This document shows positions 1 through 8,840 of a DNA stretch of 8,840 bases, in pieces. Origin of the DNA: a virus (Duplodnaviria; Heunggongvirae; Uroviricota; Caudoviricetes). The translations under genes were made by a program, and so were the position numbers. Position 1 is the stretch's first letter. Each line of letters starts with the position of its first letter. The stretch lies in the IMG/VR virus record IMGVR_UViG_2917881069_000002, positions 1 through 8,840 of that record. The stretch is one strand, 5' to 3'. The notes beneath the pieces are model-generated. The model made no database searches and was not told the DNA's origin. It saw only the letters and a list, made by a program, of their open reading frames with translations.

Positions 1-1038
1 TTAACGCTTATCCGCTACCAGTTTGAGCGCATGTTCCAGCACGTTAATGTCAGCGCCCGCTTTATGGGCATTTTCACTTAAATACCGCCGCCACTGCCGC
101 GCACCAGGAATCCCCTGGAACAGCCCCAGCATATGCCGGGTGATATGACCGAGATACGTCCCCTGGCTGAGTTCACGCTCAATGTACGGATACATAGCTC
201 GTACCACCGCCACCGGATCGGCATCGGTATCCGAGGAACCAAATATCTCTCGATCCACTGCCGCCAGAATGCCTGGGTTTTGATACGCTTCACGCCCGAC
301 CATCACGCCATCCATATGTTGCAGGTGTGCTTTAGCCTCTTCCAGCGACTTGATACCACCGTTAATTGACATAGCCAGATGCGGGAAATCACGCTTCAGT
401 TGATAGACGCGCGGGTAATCGAGCGGCGGGATCTCACGGTTTTCTTTTGGGCTTAAACCGGAGAGCCAGGCTTTACGCGCGTGGATGATAAACATCTCGC
501 ATTCGCCTTTGCCGGAAACGGTGTCGATAAAATCACAGAGAAATTCATAGCTGTCCTGGTCGTCAATGCCAATACGCGTTTTCACCGTCACTGGAATCGA
601 CACTACATCGCGCATCGCTTTTACGCAGTCAGCCACCAGTTGCGCATTCCCCATCAGGCACGCGCCAAACATGCCGTTCTGTACCCGGTCTGACGGGCAG
701 CCGACATTCAGGTTGATCTCATCATATCCGCGCGCTTCTGCCAGCTTCGCGCACTGCGCCAGCGCCGCCGGATCGCTACCGCCCAACTGTAACGCCACCG
801 GATGCTCTTCTTCACTGTATGCCAGGTAATCACCTTTACCGTGAATAATCGCCCCTGTGGTCACCATTTCGGTATAGAGCAACGTATTACGGGAGAGCAG
901 ACGCAGGAAATAACGGCAGTGTCTGTCCGTCCAGTCGAGCATAGGAGCAATGCTAAACCGAGAATTCCAGTAAACACCAGTTTTTTCAGGCATCACGCTG
1001 GTTTGATTAATTTTTTGTGTTTCATGATTATCGTGCAT
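1..1038 (-). CDS. dusA: tRNA-dihydrouridine synthase A (DusA), complete, 345 codons
   Basis: Minus-strand ORF with TAA stop at 1-3 and ATG at 1036-1038. Translation ([44 protein letters not shown] ... [21 protein letters not shown] ... ending ALKLVADKR) is recognisably enterobacterial DusA. No strong SD before the ATG at 1038; an in-frame ATG 45 nt downstream (MPEKTG...) is an alternative start. Confidence 0.95.
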
Positions 1039-1070
1039 TTTTGAACATTTCAGGCTATTTTTCTCGCGTT

Positions 1071-1106
1071 AGGTTCCCGCACAGGTTCCCACGTTTTATG
1101 GGAACC
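1071..1106. promoter_or_regulatory. Repeat cluster in the dusA-int divergent intergenic region: direct repeat AGGTTCCC (1071-1078, 1083-1090) and inverted repeat GGTTCCC-N9-GGGAACC (1084-1106)
   Basis: Read directly from the sequence aggttcccgcacaggttcccacgttttatgggaacc, 21 bp upstream of the int ATG. No T-tract on either side, so not an intrinsic terminator. Function (operator, integrase or accessory-factor site) is inference. Confidence 0.3.
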
Positions 1107-1126
1107 CGAAATAACGAGGTCGTGTA

Positions 1127-2224
1127 ATGGCGTACTATAACATAGAGAAACGACTAAAATCCGATGGCACACCACGCTATCGCTGTAATGTGATTATCAA
1201 AGAAAAAGGGGTTATCACTTACAGGGAAAGCAAAACATTCCCTAAACATGCTCATGCCAAAACATGGGGCACACAGAAAGTGATGGAATTAGATCTACAT
1301 GGCATTCCATCATCAAATGCTGTTGACGGGCTTACAGTCCGTGACTTACTACGCAAATATTTAAATGACCCAAATGCCGGAGGTAAAGCAGGCCGTACTA
1401 AAAGATATGTGCTGGAACTACTTATGGATAGTGACATTTCTGCGATCAGACTATCTGAATTAACAGAAAATGACGTAATAGAACATTGCAGGTTGAGAAA
1501 CAACGCCGGTGCAGGTCCAGCTACTGTTAGCCACGATGTTAGTTATCTTGGCAGTGTTCTGGATGCAGCCAAACCTGTATACGGAATTAATTACACATCA
1601 AACCCAGCAAAAGCCGCTCGTCCATATCTACTTAAACTTGGTTTAATTGGTAAATCAAATCGTCGTAATCGTAGACCAGCATCTGATGAACTAGACATGC
1701 TCATTGAAGGCCTTCAACAACGATCTACTCATAAATGCTCAAAAATTCCGTTCGTTGATATCCTCAAATTTTCTGTGTGGTCCTGTATGCGAATCGGAGA
1801 AGTATGCCGGTTACGATGGGAAGATCTCGACCAGGAACAAAAATCTATACTAGTAAGAGACAGGAAAGATCCACGTAAAAAGGAAGGTAACCATATGAAA
1901 GTGGCCTTGCTTGGGGAAGCCTGGGATATCGTCCAACGACAACCCAAAAAATCTGAATTCATTTTTCCATACAACAGCACTTCTGTTACCGCAGGATTTC
2001 AGAGGGTAAGAAGCAAATTAGGTATTAAAGATCTGCGATACCATGATTTGCGTAGAGAAGGGGCAAGTCGCTTATTTGAGGCTGGTTTTAGTATTGAGGA
2101 AGTCGCCCAGGTTACAGGGCATCGTTCATTAAACGTGCTATGGCAGGTATATACCGAACTGTATCCAAAATCTTTACATAATCGTTTTGAAGAACTCCAA
2201 AGGAGCAGAAATAAGACCTCTTGA
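1127..2224 (+). CDS. int: Phage tyrosine integrase (site-specific recombinase), dusA-associated type, 365 codons
   Basis: ATG at 1127 preceded by GAGG (1116-1119, 7-nt spacer). C-terminal catalytic region carries tyrosine-recombinase signature residues: Arg in CMRIGEVCRLRWEDL, H-x-x-R in YHDLRREGASRL, His in TGHRS and Tyr in LWQVYTELY. Divergent and 88 bp from dusA; lower GC than dusA. Confidence 0.92.
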   Translation: MAYYNIEKRLKSDGTPRYRCNVIIKEKGVITYRESKTFPKHAHAKTWGTQKVMELDLHGIPSSNAVDGLTVRDLLRKYLNDPNAGGKAGRTKRYVLELLMDSDISAIRLSELTENDVIEHCRLRNNAGAGPATVSHDVSYLGSVLDAAKPVYGINYTSNPAKAARPYLLKLGLIGKSNRRNRRPASDELDMLIEGLQQRSTHKCSKIPFVDILKFSVWSCMRIGEVCRLRWEDLDQEQKSILVRDRKDPRKKEGNHMKVALLGEAWDIVQRQPKKSEFIFPYNSTSVTAGFQRVRSKLGIKDLRYHDLRREGASRLFEAGFSIEEVAQVTGHRSLNVLWQVYTELYPKSLHNRFEELQRSRNKTS

Positions 2225-2272
2225 CACTGTTTATTCATACAGTTAAAAATAATACTGTATACAAACACAGTA
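2221..2272 (+). promoter_or_regulatory. SOS-regulated promoter: -35 TTGACA (2221-2226), -10 TAAAAT (2245-2250), two LexA boxes (CTGT-N8-ACAG) at 2225-2244 and 2253-2272
   Basis: Box 1 cACTGTttattcatACAGtt; box 2 taCTGTatacaaacACAGta, which differs from the consensus TACTGTATATATATACAGTA at only three central positions. The -35 overlaps the int stop codon (TGA 2222-2224). The GAGGGA RBS at 2275-2280 and dinI ATG at 2286 follow. Confidence 0.8.
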
Positions 2273-2285
2273 TAGAGGGATTTTT

Positions 2286-2534
2286 ATGCGTATTGAGATC
2301 TGCATAGCCAAAGAGAAAATGACTAAAATGCCAAACGGTGCTGTGGATGCGTTAAAGGAAGAATTAACTCGACGCATCAGTAAGCGTTATGACGATGTAG
2401 AGGTGATCGTAAAAGCCACCAGCAACGATGGCCTTTCTGTTACGCGCACCGCCGATAAAGATTCAGCTAAAACTTTTGTTCAGGAAACTCTGAAAGATAC
2501 CTGGGAGTCTGCTGACGAGTGGTTTGTTCATTAA
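2286..2534 (+). CDS. dinI: DinI-family (DNA-damage-inducible protein I-like) protein, 82 aa, prophage-encoded
   Basis: Translation [31 protein letters not shown] ... [10 protein letters not shown] ... [17 protein letters not shown] follows the E. coli DinI pattern as I recall it (MRIE..IAK...GA.DAL..EL.RRI...LSV...QETWESADDWFV; recalled, not verified). Good RBS and tandem LexA boxes immediately upstream. Confidence 0.88.
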
Positions 2535-2600
2535 TTAATACGTAAAATCGATAACGGCTGGAAATCATTCAATACTCGCACTATCGGAAGTTCACCAGCC

Positions 2601-2641
2601 AGCCGCAGTATTCTGCCATGACAAGTTGCTGCGGCTTTTTA
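2601..2641 (+). terminator. Putative rho-independent terminator downstream of dinI, between convergent genes
   Basis: Stem 2601-2610 (agccgcagta) pairs with 2627-2636 (tgctgcggct), 16-nt loop, followed by TTTTT (2636-2640). The long loop makes it weaker than a canonical terminator. No U-tract on the minus-strand side. Confidence 0.4.
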
Positions 2642-2644
2642 TGT

Positions 2645-2932
2645 TTAACGGATAAACAGCCAGACCAGCAGACACGCCACCACCGGCACAGCAAAATCCA
2701 TCAGACTTGCCATATCCCACACGCGCGGATCAAAACCACCCCACCACGGCATATTCATACGCTTGCCATGCCCGAACATTTCAATCCAGCGATATTCTGC
2801 CTGGGTATGTTCACGCGCAATGAAGAACGTACAACCGGCTATCGCTCCGTAAGCCCAGTTCCCGGTAAAAAGACCAACCAGTACCTGCGCAGCCACAGCA
2901 CAAAGTGCATGAAGGAAAGGTGTTATATCCAT
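2645..2932 (-). CDS. Small integral membrane protein (95 aa, 2-3 predicted TM helices), function unknown; candidate moron / superinfection-exclusion-type protein
   Basis: ATG at 2930-2932 preceded by AGGAGGAG (complement of 2934-2941), 10 bp after the stop of the upstream 227-aa gene. Hydrophobic segments FLHALCAVAAQVLVGLFTG, AYGAIAGCTFFIA and LMDFAVPVVACLLVWLFI. The opposing plus-strand 158-aa ORF (2618-3094) is His/Arg/Cys-rich junk with no RBS. Confidence 0.65.
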   Translation of the reverse strand: MDITPFLHALCAVAAQVLVGLFTGNWAYGAIAGCTFFIAREHTQAEYRWIEMFGHGKRMNMPWWGGFDPRVWDMASLMDFAVPVVACLLVWLFIR

Positions 2933-2942
2933 TACTCCTCCT

Positions 2943-3626
2943 TTATCCGATATCGCTTCGGGAAGTTGATAACAGCTTTAATTCTGACTCAAGTTCATCA
3001 ACTCTTTCTGTCAGTTTCTGGATATGGTGAATCAGTGGAACAACCAGACGTTCGTACATCACACCTTCGGCAACAAGGCCATTGCTGGAAATAGCTTCCG
3101 GTGCATCATCTTCGTTAGCTGGTCGCCAGTGTACAAACTGAGGGGCAATTTCTCCTACTTCCTCGGCAATCAATCCGTAGAATCCCCAGTCACGCCTGTC
3201 ATTTTCGCATTGCGACCTGTACCACACAGGGCGCATCTTGAAAATGAGATCGGCGTGCTCTGAATCTATCGTCTCTACTGAATGTTTATAGCGGATAGAC
3301 GATGTTGACCGCAGCACAGACGAAATTGCGGGGTCAGGATTAAGATAAAGGTTTGCCGCCGCTGTAGTCGTGCCCAATCCCCACAAATAAAACGCTTCAC
3401 GACCAGTCAGCGGGTAAAAATCTCCACCATAACGACCACTTTCCAGATCGTTCACTTCCACTTTGTTTTTCAGCTTATTATCAACTTCAGTTTTTGTGTA
3501 TCTGGAGCTGATATCCTGCTTTGCACTGGTCATCTCAGTCTGAAGCGTTGATACTTTTCCGTTAATTGAGGAAATATCTCCCTTTAGCTTGGTGATATCT
3601 CCTGGAATTACTGTCGATATAGCCAT
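2943..3626 (-). CDS. Tail-fibre-like protein: N-terminal coiled-coil plus C-terminal intramolecular chaperone (Peptidase S74 / endosialidase-chaperone type) domain, 227 aa
   Basis: ATG at 3624-3626 preceded by GGGAGA (TGA-GGGAGATAA-ATG). C-terminal half carries S74-type motifs: S109-S-I-R-Y-K114 (S-x-x-R-x-K, candidate autocleavage Ser/Lys dyad), MRPVWY, GLIAEEVGEIAPQFV, and a terminal helix PLIHHIQKLTERVDELESELKLL. N-terminal ITKLKGDISSINGKVSTLQTEMTSAKQDISSRYTKTEVDNKLKNKVEVNDL is heptad-like. Confidence 0.8.
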   Translation of the reverse strand: MAISTVIPGDITKLKGDISSINGKVSTLQTEMTSAKQDISSRYTKTEVDNKLKNKVEVNDLESGRYGGDFYPLTGREAFYLWGLGTTTAAANLYLNPDPAISSVLRSTSSIRYKHSVETIDSEHADLIFKMRPVWYRSQCENDRRDWGFYGLIAEEVGEIAPQFVHWRPANEDDAPEAISSNGLVAEGVMYERLVVPLIHHIQKLTERVDELESELKLLSTSRSDIG

Positions 3627-3635
3627 TTATCTCCC

Positions 3636-3917
3636 TCACATCCAGCCACGAAGTTGATGTTCAACTACAACCGCGTATTCATCGAATAATGACGATATTT
3701 GCGTATCATTAATGATGCGCACGTTTACAAAATATCCGTCTTCCTTAACACATACCGGATCGCCATCTTCAGTAAGTTCTCCGGTTTCTTTGTACACGTT
3801 ACCTATCACGTCAATGAGAATATCATCCTGCATCGACTCGTCATCATAATAGCCGATACTCTCCATAAAGGCCGAAAAGTCGGCTCTGTCGGCAAATTTG
3901 AGTGTTAAATCTTTCAT
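3636..3917 (-). CDS. Highly acidic 93-aa protein of unknown function, translationally coupled to the side tail fibre gene
   Basis: ATG at 3915-3917 overlaps the fibre stop (ATGA) and is preceded by GGGGAGAG inside the fibre 3' end. About 28% Asp+Glu with very few basic residues; no signal peptide or TM segment. Does not resemble lambda Tfa-type assembly proteins by eye. Confidence 0.65.
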   Translation of the reverse strand: MKDLTLKFADRADFSAFMESIGYYDDESMQDDILIDVIGNVYKETGELTEDGDPVCVKEDGYFVNVRIINDTQISSLFDEYAVVVEHQLRGWM

Positions 3918-6289
3918 TTAATACTCTCCCCGATTTGCGCATCAGTTAATTCTTTATGCCATATTCTGAAATTTCTAATATGACCGAATAAGTGACGTTC
4001 ACCCGTTGAAGTTTGCCCACCAAAACGAATGCTTGTATTCTTAGTTACATATCTCCACGCGGTTTTTTTAGGAACACTAGGAGGAATATCACCATTCAAA
4101 ACAATATGAACACCATAATCTTTAGTAATTCTAAATCCAGCAACGAACTTTCTCTCTTTCGTTACCAGGTAACTATTAACGCGTCCAGCATCTGCACCAA
4201 CATCAATATAAGGGCTACCAGTATTTGCGGCAGTACCGCCACGGCAACCAAAAATAACGGCCTGGCCAGTTGGCACACCGGAAAAATCCATTATACGTGG
4301 TGCTGCATTAGGAGGAAGTTCCCATTCCCAATTTCGATGAACTTCGGCTAAAACTGTAATAGGTGCGTCATACATATTATTCTTAACAGGAATGTTAACC
4401 AAATCACTAGCGCGGGTAGCTGGTACGTCGTTAGTTATGATTAATGATGTTGCATGAGAACATTTCTCTACCTGAGCGGTTGCCGCCTTTATGTAATTTC
4501 CTGCGACCAATTCGCCGCCACTTTTAGCAAGCATTTCAGTACGAGCATAAACGCTCATATCTTCGGTGGCTTTAAATGTCGATTGGAAAAAATACCATCC
4601 ACTAGCAGGATCATAATCAACGCGACTAGACAAAACATCACTAACTAGTTTAGCGGTATCAAGATCCAACATAGCATCAGCAATAAATGTGTTTCCGTTC
4701 CCGTCATCATTTAATTTTGAAATACGATGGCGAGCGCGACAACCAGCCCCCTTAACACGAATAGATATAGTAACATATTCACCACCAACAACTGGAATCA
4801 CACGGGATGTCCCAGTAGAAATCAACGTAACTGGCCCAGTGTCGGATGATTCTTTATAAGTGAATGTTGCTTGAGTAAAACCAAATTCATCAATAGAGTT
4901 TTCACTAACAGATAAACGGTTTGTATTTCTGTTCCAGTTCGCTGGTGAGTTACTATTAATAAAGTTATTAGTCGTAGTACCTTCAATCAACAAACCATTT
5001 TTTTCGAAGCGTGGTTCGTCAATTGCAGCCTCCGTCAGTACACCAGATTTGTTAATGTAGGTTGCTTTCGATGCGCGTTTAAACTTTACAACCTTATCGC
5101 CAGGCATTGTTATTTCATCATCACCAATAACAATCTTTTTATATGATGGCGAAAAGCCCGTAATCATATCCAGTGAATCGTTAAACGGTATCCACACATC
5201 GGGAAGCGGCTGCAAAACTTGTTTATACGGCTCCGCAGCCTGGCTTGCATACTCTCTGGCTGCGTCTTCACTTGCTTTTGCAGCCGTCTGGCTTGCAGCG
5301 GATGCTTTCGCCGAGTTAGCCGCCGCAGTCTCGCTCGCCTTTGCGTTGGTTTCACTGGTTTTTGCAGCTTTTTGACTGTTGGCTGATGCAGTGGCAGAAG
5401 AAGCCGCCGCACTTGCAGAACCAGCTGCGGCACTCTCGCTTTGGGCTGCTGCATCCTGACTGTTTTTCGCCGCAGTTTCGCTGGCTTTGGCATTCGTTTC
5501 GCTGGTCTTCGCTGCCGTCTGGCTGGACTTTGCGTTAGTTTCACTCGTCTTCGCAGCTTTCTGGCTGTTAGCCGCAGCAGTTGCTGATCCAGCTGCTGAA
5601 GTCGCAGAACCGGCTGCAGCACTCTCGCTTTCGGCTGCTGCAGCCTGACTGCTTTTCGCCGCAGTTTCACTGGTTTTGGCATTCGTTTCGCTTGTTTTCG
5701 CTGCCGTCTGGCTGGACTTTGCGTTAGTTTCGCTCGTCTTTGCGGCTGTCTCGCTGTTTTTCGCATTGGTTTCTGATTTTTTGGCTGCTGTCGCGGAGTT
5801 TGCCGATGCAGTCTGTGAGGCCGCTGCCGCCTGTGCGCTGTTAGCTGCATTCGTTTCTGAGGTTTTCGCCGCGTTCTTCGATGATGCCGCTGCAGTTTCG
5901 GATTTCTTTGCCGCCGCTGCGCTCTGAGAGGCGGCTTCGGCGTTGCGTGCCGCTTCTTCCACCATTTCCTCAAAACGACGCAATGCCTCCGGCATGACGT
6001 CCTCTTCCGTCATGGCACCGAGAAAATCATTCAGCGTACCTGGTCTGGAACCTTCATAGACGGTAATGGTCCCGGCATGTGAAGGCGGAAAACCTTCAAC
6101 CAGCAGGGTGACGCTGTACTGGCCATACTCAACATCCATACTGTAACGCCCGGCTTCATCCGGATTTTCAGATGCCACCGTGTTCACCAGTACCGTGGTG
6201 CTGTTACGCTTTGCCTTCAGTTGAATAGTGCAGTTCTGTATTGGTTTTCCCGCACCATCTTTCAGCACACCTGAAATCTGTACTGCCAT
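3914..6289 (-). CDS. stf: Side tail fibre protein (lambda Stf-like N-terminal domain, Ala/Ser/Thr-rich repeat shaft, distinct C-terminal jelly-roll/LamG-like putative receptor-binding domain)
   Basis: Start taken as ATG 6287-6289 (GGAG 5 nt upstream); the track start at 6295 is a GTG inside the SD. N-terminus MAVQISGVLKDGAGKPIQNCTIQLKAKRNSTTV ... EAGRYSMDVEYGQYSV ... GFPPSHAGTITVYE matches the lambda Stf N-terminal domain as I recall it. C-terminal ~400 aa are AT-rich DNA, starting EPRFEKNGLLIEGTTTNNF and ending RFGGQTSTGERHLFGHIRNFRIWHKELTDAQIGESIK. Confidence 0.9.
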   Translation of the reverse strand: MAVQISGVLKDGAGKPIQNCTIQLKAKRNSTTVLVNTVASENPDEAGRYSMDVEYGQYSVTLLVEGFPPSHAGTITVYEGSRPGTLNDFLGAMTEEDVMPEALRRFEEMVEEAARNAEAASQSAAAAKKSETAAASSKNAAKTSETNAANSAQAAAASQTASANSATAAKKSETNAKNSETAAKTSETNAKSSQTAAKTSETNAKTSETAAKSSQAAAAESESAAAGSATSAAGSATAAANSQKAAKTSETNAKSSQTAAKTSETNAKASETAAKNSQDAAAQSESAAAGSASAAASSATASANSQKAAKTSETNAKASETAAANSAKASAASQTAAKASEDAAREYASQAAEPYKQVLQPLPDVWIPFNDSLDMITGFSPSYKKIVIGDDEITMPGDKVVKFKRASKATYINKSGVLTEAAIDEPRFEKNGLLIEGTTTNNFINSNSPANWNRNTNRLSVSENSIDEFGFTQATFTYKESSDTGPVTLISTGTSRVIPVVGGEYVTISIRVKGAGCRARHRISKLNDDGNGNTFIADAMLDLDTAKLVSDVLSSRVDYDPASGWYFFQSTFKATEDMSVYARTEMLAKSGGELVAGNYIKAATAQVEKCSHATSLIITNDVPATRASDLVNIPVKNNMYDAPITVLAEVHRNWEWELPPNAAPRIMDFSGVPTGQAVIFGCRGGTAANTGSPYIDVGADAGRVNSYLVTKERKFVAGFRITKDYGVHIVLNGDIPPSVPKKTAWRYVTKNTSIRFGGQTSTGERHLFGHIRNFRIWHKELTDAQIGESIK
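5341..5760 (-). repeat. In-frame tandem duplication, period 189 bp (63 aa), about 2.2 copies, containing 42-bp (14-aa AAKTSETNAKSSQT-like) sub-repeats, within the stf shaft
   Basis: Copy at about 5425-5556 is near-identical to 5614-5745 (offset 189 bp); unit starts at about 5341, 5530 and 5719 (partial). Encodes the repeated block AAKTSETNAK(S/A)S(Q/E)TAAK..SESAAAGSA...ANSQK. Confidence 0.75.
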
Positions 6290-6300
6290 ACTCACTCCAC

Positions 6301-6328
6301 AAATAAAAAAGGCGCCATTTCCGGCGCC
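6301..6328 (-). terminator. Rho-independent terminator between J and stf
   Basis: Minus strand reads GGCGCC-GGAAAT-GGCGCC (6-bp all-GC stem, 6-nt loop; 6328-6311) followed by TTTTTTATTT (6310-6301). It sits 22 nt after the J stop, and its T-tract abuts the stf SD. Confidence 0.6.
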
Positions 6329-6349
6329 CGTATTGGGGTTATAAATATT

Positions 6350-8107
6350 TCAACGGATACTGATACCGGAAGCAGCTTTTTTGGTCACAATCACTGTACA
6401 GTCTGTGATGTTACCTGCGCCCTGATTGCCTTTCTGGAAAATCTTAAACTCCAGAGTGACGCTACCACCACCACTCGGCATATCAATAACCGCACTGTAA
6501 CTACCGGGAATGGCTCCTTTAGTTTCTCTGGTTGCGATTAATACGCCGTTTTTGCGAACTTCAAAACCATAACCCGTGTATCGCGTACCTCCCGGGTTAT
6601 TACCGCTCCCCGGATCGTCATACGCCACACCATTAAAAATAATGGGCGGAATAATAATCTGACGGTCAAAGTTATGATCATCGTAAATGGTGACTGTAAC
6701 CGTCCCGCCTGGTGTTTCCGTATCGCCCCACGAGCCAGTTTTTTTCGGGAATGGCTTAGATACAGCTTTGACGAAGTCACCTCTGACCTGAGTTGCCTCC
6801 AGCATTCCCTTAATCGTACAGTTCTCATTTATCGTGACGTTGTTGAGCGTCCCGGAGTTCGCGTTCACGTTACCGCTGATATCCGCATTTTTCGCCGTCA
6901 GCCGCCCGTCCGGTGTCAGGGAAAATGCCGGAGGATTACCGCCGCTGGTAATGGTGGGAGCCGTCAGATACTTCAGGAACACTTCGTTCATGAATATCTG
7001 GTTGCCCTGCGCCACAAACATCGGCGTTTCATTCCCGTTTGCCGGGTCAATAAACGCGATACGGTTAGCGGCAACCAGGAACTGGCTCAGTTTGCCTTCC
7101 TCCGTATCCTCCATACTAAGGCCAAGCCCCGCGACATAATGCCTGCCGTCTTCGGTCTGCTCAATTTTGACGCCCCACATGGCATTCCATTTATCGTTGG
7201 CGTCCTTCCACTCTTTCGAAAACTCCTCCAGTTTGCTGGCGTTATCCTCCGTCAGCTCGACTTTTTCCAGCAGCTCCTTGCCGAGATGGGATTCGGTTAT
7301 CTGGCCTTTGAAAAAATCCAGGTAACCTTCCGCATCATCGCTCGCCCGACCGACAGCCTCCACGAATGTCGATTTGCCGACGGTGTTCACACTGCGAACG
7401 TAAAAATAATAATCATGGCCCGGTTTGATATTGATACTGGCGGCTATCCAGTACAGCGCCGTGCCAAGATAGCGGGCTGTGGTTTCAACCTGCCTGATAT
7501 CCGCAATCCGCTTTTCCGAGAACCAGAACTCAAACTGTACAGTCGGATCATAAACCGCAAGATGCGGCGTGGCGGTTATCTGAAAATAGCCCGGCGTCAG
7601 CTCAATCCGCGATGGCGCTGCCGGTGCGGCAATCCGGAACGATACCGACGCCGGATCGCCCTGCTGCCCCCACGCATTTACCGCCCGGACTGTCAGACTG
7701 TAATTTCCCAGAGCCAGCTGCCTGAAGCGGTATGTGGTTTCCGTCGTCCGGGCCGTGCTGACCAGCCGCTCACTGCCGTCATCCGCTGCCACGGTCAGGC
7801 GAAGCATAAAGCTCACGCCCTTCACCACCTTCGGCGTATCCCAGCGCGCCAGCACCTGGTATTCCCCGCTGTCTGCGGTGACTTCTGCGGTCAGGTGTTG
7901 CACTGCTGGCGGAGTGACACCATTCACCGTGCCGCTCTGGTCGCCGTCAAAGTGCGCCCCGTTATCCACGATGGCTTCTTTCTCCGGCACATGCTGCACG
8001 GCGGTGATGGCATACGTACCGTCATCGTTCTCACGGATACTCACGCAGCGGAACAGGCGCTGGCGCAGCGTCGGCAGCTTCAGCCCCCACCACGCTGTAT
8101 TCTGCAA
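6350..8107 (-). CDS. J: Host-specificity protein J (central tail fibre / tail tip), C-terminal 585-codon segment; its upstream end is a frameshift point, not a true start
   Basis: Long minus-strand ORF ending ...[13 protein letters not shown] with TGA at 6350-6352. Translation from [41 protein letters not shown] onward reads as a lambda gpJ-family protein. The track M at 8107 is a TTG; the real continuation is in the overlapping upstream frame. Confidence 0.85.
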
Positions 8108-8840
8108 CGCCGTCAGGAACCCGTCTCACTTTCACCTTCACGCCGTCGGTGACGGACTGGACCTCCACGCTGACCGGATTCCCCTGTCCGTCAACCAGGC
8201 TTATCAGCGTGGTGCCGGAGGATGGCAGCGTGATTTCACGGTCGAGCGTCAGTGTCCGCGTCTGGCTGTTCACCGCCAGCACGCGCCCGCCGATGCTGAT
8301 ACCCGCATAGTCATCATCACAGATTTCAATGACATCGCCCGGTACATGGCGAAGCCCTTCTGCACCCACGCTGAAGTCCACGGTCTGCGTTTCCAGCAGC
8401 TCCGTTTTAATCAGCCACAGCCCGGCGCGGTGTGCCTGCCCCCGGCTGGTACAGCCAAAGGCATCCATCTTCGTGACGTTACGACCGTAACGGAGAATGG
8501 CCTGCGTATCTTCAACAAGCTCTGTCGCCGTCTCCCAGCCGTTATTCGGGTCAATCCAGTTCACCTCAACGGCATTATGGCGGTCCTTCAGGGCGCTGAA
8601 GCTGTAGCGGAACGGCGCGCCATCATCCGGCATCACCACATTACTGCGGTTATAGGTCCACACCTTATCCGACGGTCGGTCCTGCACGAACGTCAGCGTC
8701 TGCCCGTTCCATACCGGCATACAGCGCATCGCCGAGCAGAAATCACTGAGAACATCCCACGCCTTACGCTGTGTGGTCAGGTAGGCATTACGAGGTGATG
8801 CGCGGCTCCGTGCCACCAAAGCCATCCGGCACCGACTGGT
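8031..8840 (-). CDS. J: Host-specificity protein J, N-proximal segment (5' end beyond the window), terminated by an apparent frameshift
   Basis: Frame is open to the window edge (codons TSRCR precede the track's ATG at 8823-8825). Translation ...[72 protein letters not shown]...[17 protein letters not shown] is J-like. It then degenerates to [19 protein letters not shown] and stops at 8031-8033 while the J-like reading continues in the other frame. Confidence 0.85.

Follow-up and report, generated by a model that had tools for sequence, protein, structure and literature searches.

A phage protein family with an invariant tryptophan-rich core, predicted to span the inner membrane three times, is encoded directly downstream of receptor-binding protein genes

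The window analysed here is a stretch of 8,840 nucleotides (nt) of a tailed-phage record (Duplodnaviria; Heunggongvirae; Uroviricota; Caudoviricetes; IMG/VR record IMGVR_UViG_2917881069_000002, positions 1 to 8,840), and the element in question is a 95-codon open reading frame (ORF) on its minus strand, which starts with ATG, ends with TAA and encodes a protein of 95 amino acids (aa). It is the terminal gene of a tightly packed, co-oriented series of minus-strand fibre genes, which runs from J through the side tail fibre gene stf, a 93-aa ORF and the gene for a 227-aa protein with an S74 domain to the 95-aa ORF, and is followed by a convergent dinI-like gene (Table 1). Given the dinI-like gene, the integrase gene and dusA beyond the fibre operon, the window represents the right end of a lambdoid prophage with dusA as its integration site. 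The TAA stop of the 227-aa gene (2945-2943) is directly followed by AGGAGG (2942-2937), an AGTA spacer and the ATG at 2932, which gives an intergenic gap of 10 nt and a strong Shine-Dalgarno sequence. A first-pass annotation of this DNA had described the gene as coding for a small membrane protein with two to three hydrophobic helices, as preceded by a perfect Shine-Dalgarno sequence and as the last gene of the minus-strand tail-fibre operon. All three descriptions hold, with the 4-nt spacing to the ATG as given above and with three helices found both by hydropathy and in the AlphaFold2 model.

Table 1. Coordinates of the membrane protein gene, of its parts and of the neighbouring features in the window
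Feature	Coordinates	Strand	Basis or remarks
dusA	1..1038	-	
Tyrosine integrase	1127..2224	+	
DinI-family gene, convergent on the membrane protein gene	2286..2534	+	PF06183, E 1e-19
Hairpin 3' of the membrane protein gene, GC-rich stem of 8-10 bp	2601..2636	.	Energy not significant versus shuffles (z -0.98, -0.56)
Gene for the predicted three-helix membrane protein, PHROG 1443	2645..2932	-	ORF, profile, homologues, AlphaFold2, dN/dS
Helix 3, residues 74-94	2651..2713	-	D79 and P83 conserved; C-terminal tail practically nil
Mosaic block, Shine-Dalgarno to near the stop; the moving unit	2655..2944	-	94-96% DNA identity with phage 21 and two E. ruysiae prophages
Invariant polar Trp-rich core, residues 40-72: REHTQAEYRWIEMFGHGKRMNMPWWGGFDPRVW	2717..2815	-	Amphipathic extension of helix 2 plus ordered loop
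Helix 2, hydrophobic part, residues 26-39	2816..2857	-	W26 and G29 conserved
Helix 1, residues 4-23	2864..2923	-	Variable except H8, Q16 and G20
Ribosome-binding region, AGGAGG and 4-nt spacer	2933..2942	-	Direct sequence reading
227-aa fibre-domain protein with C-terminal Peptidase_S74 intramolecular chaperone	2943..3626	-	PF13884, E 6e-6; phrog_3299 and tail-fibre PHROGs
93-aa acidic protein	3636..3917	-	phrog_1361; 4-nt overlap with the stf stop
Side tail fibre Stf, 793 aa; first gene of the fibre module	3914..6295	-	PF08400, E 7e-67
gpJ	6350..8107	-	

Profile searches placed the protein in phrog_1443 (E 7e-58, residues 1-94 aligned to profile positions 1-94 of 97) and recovered 581 homologues at 90% clustering, with e-values reaching down to 2e-58. 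A deep profile search resolved the family into 444 clusters at 50% identity, every one of which is a stand-alone protein of about 63-146 aa; domain fusions were sought among these 444 clusters and none were found. More than a third of the complete E. coli genomes (1,904 of 5,426, or 35%) carry at least one copy, with a median of 2 and a maximum of 6 per genome, and the window copy is 92-95% identical to thousands of these E. coli copies. The window gene is an ordinary member of a widespread family, and the ORF is far beyond chance because of the 581 homologues, the 444 clusters and the constraint on the ratio of nonsynonymous to synonymous substitution rates (dN/dS) reported below. A further match came from a 2.8-kb contig binned into a Collinsella metagenome-assembled genome, which carries an Escherichia-type S74 gene next to a membrane protein gene with 94% protein identity to that of the window; this contig is almost certainly a binning contaminant.

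Despite its abundance, the family is annotated everywhere as 'hypothetical protein', save that the annotators of phage 21 recorded a 'putative membrane protein' on the strength of transmembrane segments detected by TMHMM. PHROG 1443 is itself unannotated, with neither a Pfam model nor a structure, and PHROG 34165 is its fragment family. A search against all 38,880 PHROGs at E<=1 returned only phrog_1443, this fragment family and two chance-level matches. Pfam, NCBIfam and PADLOC searches with the 95-aa protein and Pfam searches with 57 members of the alignment gave nothing above noise, a PDB sequence profile search gave a single chance match (E 0.8), and no enzyme or transporter fold was recognised. 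The homology check that had been proposed for this gene thus assigned it to no characterised family in Pfam, NCBIfam, PHROG or PADLOC, leaving only the unnamed PHROG 1443. The literature searched on the phage 21 genome, on screens for small membrane exclusion proteins and on the invariant motif likewise yielded nothing on the PHROG 1443 family.

Hydropathy analysis revealed hydrophobic segments at about residues 4-23, 26-39 and 74-94, and an AlphaFold2 model built from the 57-sequence alignment placed helices at 4-23, 26-53 and 74-94 with an ordered loop at 54-73 (mean predicted local distance difference test score, pLDDT, 95.9; predicted template modelling score, pTM, 0.82). The product is accordingly predicted to be a three-helix integral inner-membrane protein. 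In the alignment, which comprises 57 sequences of less than 80% pairwise identity, the three hydrophobic segments vary freely, and conservation is concentrated in the polar stretch between the second and third of them. Here the columns R40, E41, Q44, A45, E46, Y47, R48, W49, G56, R58, P62, W64, G65, G66, F67 and W72 are invariant. When nearly invariant positions are included, the core reads R40, E41, (H42), T43, Q44, A45, E46, Y47, R48, W49, I50, G54, G56 and R58, and the loop N60, M61, P62, W63, W64, G65, G66, F67, D68, R70 and W72; outside the core the same holds for D2, P5, H8, Q16, W26, G29, D79 and P83. The resulting pattern, RE.TQAEYRWI...G.G.R.NMPWWGG.D..W...D...P, built on a 35-residue core, is common to the phage copies and to chromosomal copies from Aeromonas and sphingomonads (see below). 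H42 is not conserved in the chromosomal copies and is therefore not essential. In the copy of the prophage Gally (GALLYPH_17) a cysteine replaces the otherwise invariant W64 (NMPWCGGFD), and judging from this substitution that copy may be functionally impaired.

Comparison with other Escherichia copies gave an overall dN/dS of 0.13-0.18, with 0.05-0.09 for residues 39-72 and 0.16-0.32 elsewhere, and against distant copies the core peptide stays the same while synonymous sites are saturated. Purifying selection acts on the gene, and the core at residues 40-72 is presumed to be the functional site. Residues 40-53 have a hydrophobic moment of 0.51. Counting from the tight G24-N25 turn, H8 in helix 1 and R40/E41 in helix 2 lie at equal depth, with D79 near the same face, and this helix register suggests a polar cluster at one membrane interface. 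The invariant polar set as a whole consists of H8, R40, E41, E46, Y47, R48, D68 and D79, together with five tryptophans. The side formed by the N-terminal tail and the core carries 5.8 lysines and arginines as against 0.56 on the other side, a bias that favours a cytoplasmic core, so that an N-in/C-out arrangement is the more likely on charge counts.

All phage contexts examined have the gene immediately 3' of, and on the same strand as, a receptor-binding protein (RBP) gene or the small companion ORF of such a gene; in GC-rich loci, where naive ORF calling is noisy, profile-confirmed neighbours were relied on. This adjacency recurs in at least six phage lineages, namely lambda-like, SSU5-like, P2/HP1-like, P22-like and epsilon15-like phages and a jumbo phage, which between them cover all three tail morphologies. 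The lambda-like contexts comprise the window, phage 21 (stf, 92-aa ORF, gene) and prophages of SF-468, E. ruysiae and E. coli LF82, and the SSU5-like context is the phage-plasmid PhiR41_1. P2/HP1-like myovirus prophages with the gene occur in Leclercia and Aeromonas salmonicida, where the fibre stop and the gene start abut or overlap, and a tailspike-bearing siphovirus prophage in Citrobacter. Among podoviruses, P22-like Gally has the order tailspike, gene, integrase, and epsilon15-like phiv142-3 the order fibre, gene, holin, endolysin; in the Aeromonas jumbo phage ACP1 the gene is flanked by two fibre genes. Further prophages come from Comamonas, Chelativorans, Pantoea and Desulfovibrio, and in a prophage bearing a diversity-generating retroelement (DGR) the gene stands between the Mtd-like target gene and avd. 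The gap to the upstream RBP gene ranges from -4 to a few tens of nt, with 240 nt in Gally. The neighbouring RBPs are mutually unrelated (LamG-type Stf tips, S74 fibres, a pectate-lyase spike, Mtd-like and gpJ-like proteins), and what follows on the downstream side changes from context to context (dinI and integrase, sitDCBA, pinQ, holin, avd, umuD or further tail genes). In the loci of Comamonas nitrativorans and Pigmentiphaga humi (3785-5691), the homologue is found inside the DGR cassette, between the gene for an Mtd-like variable tail protein (phrog_2889/5302) and the Avd gene.

Three candidate partners were rejected. The S74 domain lies upstream in only 7 loci, one of them a Desulfovibrio prophage; the 93-aa acidic ORF is present in 7 of 81 loci, all of them Escherichia lambdoids; and a downstream lysis cassette is not recurrent, the downstream genes being heterogeneous. 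Unannotated remnants of the gene were also detected just after the RBP genes of two virulent phages, corresponding to the C-terminal half in coliphage 6947 (locus 4965-5120) and to the N-terminal half in Kuttervirus KFSST3 (locus 3980-4105). These remnants are footprints of fibre modules taken up from temperate phages, and their position beside the RBP genes of virulent phages shows that fibre cassettes take the gene along and that it can decay in such phages.

Comparison of window 4000-2200 by blastn with phage 21 and two Escherichia ruysiae prophages delimited the conserved 290-bp block listed in Table 1, upstream of which the DNA is unrelated, encoding the 227-aa S74 protein in the window, a 92-aa ORF in phage 21 and one E. 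ruysiae prophage, and a 346-aa fibre protein in the other. The next shared block corresponds to window 2608-2537 and lies beyond the sitABCD insertion in phage 21; in both phage 21 and the LF82 prophage Perceval, sitABCD sits between the membrane protein gene and this next block. Because the shared block begins at the Shine-Dalgarno sequence, the gene is not accompanied by a promoter, and as the variable cargo inserts 3' of it, the gene is the last backbone gene of the fibre module and lies outside the variable interval. At the 3' edge of fibre modules the 290-bp block forms a mosaic joint, and the gene moves along with such modules as a cassette extending from Shine-Dalgarno to stop. Together with the conserved Stf N-terminus, the block could serve as a recombination anchor for fibre exchange. 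A consensus scan of the minus strand over 2200-4000, which includes about 1 kb upstream of the gene, detected no sigma-70-like promoter, and a scan of the same interval detected no intrinsic terminator for the membrane protein gene. The hairpin 3' of the gene is followed by a U-run on the plus strand only and therefore looks like the terminator of the convergent dinI-like gene, not of the membrane protein gene. A promoter-like site matching at 10 of 12 positions was seen at 2221-2250, near the dinI-like gene.

The distal fibre slot between the 93-aa ORF and the membrane protein gene has interchangeable contents, being occupied by the 227-aa S74-chaperone protein in the window and by a 346-aa fibre protein (phrog_4563) in E. 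ruysiae and LF82 Tritos, and being empty in phage 21 and Perceval. Once the self-cleaving chaperone is removed, the mature part of the 227-aa protein would be only about 100 residues. Within stf, the minus-strand region at about 5300-5970 consists of long tandem repeats rich in alanine, serine, threonine and lysine (AAKTSETNAKSSQTAAKTSETNAK), with many spurious overlapping ORFs in other frames. The prophage is inserted at the 5' end of dusA, with 88 nt between the integrase gene and the dusA start (1038). Matches of the whole window to E. coli genomes reach only about 93% identity, with coverage in one place of at most 64%, and the host is therefore probably a non-coli Escherichia or a divergent lineage.

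The family is not restricted to phages. A free-standing copy lies between ligA and prmA in Sphingomonas arvum, and in other alphaproteobacterial genomes copies follow genes for an NadB-like oxidase, AMP nucleosidase, DAHP synthase, PNPase or cytidine deaminase. Several Aeromonas species share one syntenic site at which the copy stands between the pirin and RIO1 kinase genes, and this copy may be a cellular form of the family, either ancestral or domesticated. No phage genes were found near any of these chromosomal loci. One of the Aeromonas loci has two lipid A acyltransferase genes beyond the RIO1 kinase gene.

Expression could be followed for three homologues in E. coli LF82, in the prophages Gally (GALLYPH_17, LF82_765), Perceval (PERCE_24, LF82_183) and Tritos (TRITO_22, LF82_259), using the supplementary tables of Misson et al. 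(PMC9928086); the data thus concern these LF82 homologues and not the window gene. Values for overnight LB cultures are in log2(fpkm+5), where fpkm stands for fragments per kilobase per million, with a floor of 2.32, and fold changes are log2 values for macrophages at 6 h versus LB; reads were filtered at a mapping quality (MAPQ) of 30, and mutually similar copies may be under-counted. LF82_183 stood at 3.19 / 3.79 in LB with a macrophage change of 3.0, as compared with 4.85 for the neighbouring stf, 3.73 for the 92-aa ORF, 2.05 for J and -2.07 for lom; LF82_765 stood at 3.75 / 4.53 with a change of 4.9, the tailspike gene showing 4.42; and LF82_259 stood at 2.82 / 3.79 with a change of 0.2, the upstream fibre genes showing 5.4 to 7.85 (PMC9928086). 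Raw counts for LF82_259 were 1-17 across all 10 samples, making it silent in all five conditions (PMC9928086). The reads for LF82_183 (9-14) compare with a Perceval median of 7.1 and a cutoff of 35.6, none of the three genes reaches the moron threshold in LB or appears in the moron table, and sitABD in LF82 lies 5- to 13-fold above background (PMC9928086). The three homologues are near background in LB-grown lysogens, and two of them increase only in parallel with the fibre or tailspike genes beside them; by extension from these homologues, the window gene appears to be silent in lysogens. Since the homologues are silent there, it is probably not a lysogenic-conversion gene.

In macrophages, stf, the 93-aa ORF and the distal fibre genes of Perceval and Tritos increase 30- to 200-fold, gpJ increases at most about 4-fold in Perceval and is flat in Tritos, and Perceval lom shows no rise (PMC9928086). 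This rise of the fibre genes far above gpJ and lom suggests an internal promoter before stf or selective RNA stability. In Tritos the signal ends abruptly just before the membrane protein gene.

These results bear on the further proposal of the first-pass annotation, namely that the gene is a candidate superinfection-exclusion or moron gene in the variable interval where lambdoid phages carry lysogenic-conversion genes, for which expression in the lysogen was to be checked. The membrane protein and its place at the operon end survive from this label. Its moron part is contradicted: no promoter lies in the shared block, cargo inserts 3' of the gene, and in lysogens the LF82 homologues are essentially unexpressed.

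We favour, at slightly less than an even chance, the reading that the gene encodes a promoter-less accessory inner-membrane protein of the RBP operon, located outside the variable moron region. That this fibre-operon accessory protein acts on a conserved envelope target during the lytic cycle seems to us about equally likely to be right or wrong. On this reading the protein would be made alongside the fibres, from late or fibre-operon transcripts, and its hydrophobic helices would serve as an anchor only. The invariant core, with H8, Q16 and D79 near the same membrane face, would bind or act on an envelope component conserved across Proteobacteria, for which a lipid-linked intermediate and a conserved inner-membrane protein are the candidates, and the effect would be general and not fitted to a particular fibre or receptor. 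In the version we prefer, an envelope function would be altered or blocked late in infection, such that the infected cell and its debris would neither take up nor waste phage; this late exclusion or progeny protection is a speculative refinement to which we attach only a low probability. Equally speculative, and improbable to the same degree, is the wider proposition that the family is an unrecognised functional partner of RBP modules, that is, a minimal membrane-anchored enzyme or ligand-binder acting on a universal envelope intermediate (a polyprenyl-phosphate-linked glycan or a core inner-membrane machine), which phages, whatever their tail type, would have taken over from bacteria and would express jointly with their fibres for receptor-independent envelope reprogramming.

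Several observations weigh against the favoured reading. The Tritos copy, whose architecture is closest to that of the window, is silent while its upstream fibre genes rise 40- to 200-fold, implying that read-through from the fibre genes is not guaranteed, although the MAPQ 30 filter may have removed shared reads. The gene has decayed in two virulent phages and is thus dispensable for lytic growth in those backgrounds. The position next to RBP genes could be simple hitch-hiking with the phage module that is most often exchanged, and the core chromosomal copies of sphingomonads and Aeromonas speak for a basic activity that is cellular, not anti-phage. The assignment of the core to the cytoplasm is also weakened, both by the approximately four acidic residues that the core loop carries and by an arginine in the helix 1-2 turn of the sphingomonad copies.

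The HK97 gp15, P22 SieA and T4 Imm proteins are inner-membrane superinfection-exclusion proteins, with gp15 encoded inside the tail-gene region, and are made from the prophage or early in infection, specific to phage type and narrow in distribution. The window protein resembles them as a small phage-encoded integral protein of predicted inner-membrane location, and differs in that its family shares no sequence or profile similarity with them, is near-silent in lysogens, keeps its core invariant across proteobacterial classes and has cellular relatives. This extreme conservation, the purifying selection and the free-standing chromosomal relatives make it unlike known exclusion proteins. In P22 the gtrABC genes, and in epsilon15 the seroconversion genes, lie downstream of the tailspike gene, and the same slot is filled by the present family in Gally (tailspike, gene, integrase) and in the epsilon15-like phage (fibre, gene, lysis); the difference is that the family is conserved in hosts, sphingomonads among them, whose surface glycans are unrelated, and shows no expression from the Gally prophage. 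No similarity to GtrA, acyltransferase or Wzy-type proteins was found in Pfam, NCBIfam or PHROG. Like lom, bor and sitABCD, the gene is a non-structural gene in the lambdoid tail-fibre-to-integrase region; these morons, however, are autonomous and expressed in the lysogen, whereas the window gene is promoter-less, lies upstream of the cargo insertion point and has homologues at lysogen background. An account in which the protein is made in the lysogen, as a superinfection-exclusion or lysogenic-conversion factor that blocks DNA entry or alters the surface for related phages, would draw on Gally, where the gene fills the tailspike-to-integrase slot that houses gtrABC in P22 and has its 240-nt gap upstream, on the decay in two virulent phages and on the domesticated-looking chromosomal copies. 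It would also draw on the small predicted inner-membrane protein encoded next to RBP genes, as loci of this type house the exclusion factors of small siphoviruses (PMC11990801). We nevertheless consider this account unlikely, given a cassette without a promoter, a core held invariant by purifying selection while the adjacent RBPs are mutually unrelated, up to 6 copies per genome and no similarity to exclusion-annotated PHROGs or PADLOC models. The Cor and Llp proteins of T1-, T5- and phi80-like phages illustrate a related principle, being receptor-blocking lipoproteins encoded beside RBP genes (PMC11990801). The RBP-adjacent gene and a possible logic of shielding the infected cell or progeny from adsorption to debris would be shared with them, but Cor and Llp are lipoproteins fitted to one outer-membrane receptor, whereas the window protein is predicted to span the membrane three times and shows no co-variation with the RBP. 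It has no lipobox, its sole N-terminal cysteine, C11, following H-A-L (8-11) and not being conserved in the family. The Tai tail-assembly-interference systems were considered and rejected, as they are cytoplasmic proteins from other hotspots.

A somewhat stronger rival, though still rather improbable in our estimate, holds that the gene is physiological cargo derived from the host, such as a cellular envelope-homeostasis enzyme, regulator or small channel that benefits the bacterium, for example inside macrophages. The free-standing copies among sphingomonad housekeeping genes and the syntenic Aeromonas site point in this direction, the invariant polar cluster with its five tryptophans resembles an active or ligand site, and the Perceval and Gally copies increase 8- to 30-fold in macrophages. 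Yet that increase runs parallel to that of the fibre genes and is not seen for the Tritos copy, the phage contexts provide no promoter for the gene itself, no enzyme or transporter fold is recognised, and the strict post-RBP position is left unexplained. A role in lysis, as holin, antiholin or lysis-timing factor, could be read into a small protein with three transmembrane helices that is probably expressed late, into phiv142-3, where the gene directly precedes the holin-endolysin cassette, and into sub-threshold Phage_holin_8 matches in 2 of the 57 members (best E 0.0027). This is highly improbable, however, because the charged C-terminal tail of holins is absent (the window protein ends 1-3 residues after helix 3, and the family mean of K+R in the C-tail is 0.5), because lysis genes are not near in the lambdoid, P2-like and P22-like contexts, and because the chromosomal copies are unlinked to lysis genes and there are no PHROG lysis matches; no lysis genes lie in the window, and linkage to a holin was seen in phiv142-3 only. 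The least probable of these alternatives is that the protein is an assembly or maturation factor for the adjacent RBP, for instance for S74-type fibres. The tight junctions, with the stop codon of the fibre gene abutting the start of the membrane protein gene, overlapping it by 4 nt or preceding it by about 10 nt, and the S74 chaperone domain directly upstream in seven loci would suit such a factor, but in most loci an S74 domain is missing upstream, the RBPs have no structural relationship to one another, coliphage 6947 and the Kuttervirus have kept the RBP gene beside a decayed remnant, and the chromosomal copies have no phage genes nearby. Tail-fibre assembly chaperones, moreover, are soluble, are needed by the adjacent fibre and co-vary with it, whereas the window protein is predicted to be membrane-bound and stands beside unrelated RBP types.

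The specific combination of an invariant polar core, a strict post-RBP position, cellular homologues and silence in lysogens fits no described class of phage accessory gene. The present case also cautions that a position near integrases is by itself a poor ground for labelling small membrane ORFs as 'morons' or 'exclusion genes'. Fibre-swapping designs that copy 'stf plus downstream accessory genes' will bring the membrane protein gene along, and its 290-bp block is a likely 3' recombination anchor in the natural exchange of fibre modules. The gene is carried by about a third of complete E. coli genomes, by phage 21, Perceval, Tritos and Gally and by many gut coliphages, and an uncharacterised family of this kind, with an unusual and well-defined signature, deserves experiments. 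Should the protein act on an envelope component that is conserved, it would bring to light a general step, either in late infection or in envelope biology, that is exploited by phages.

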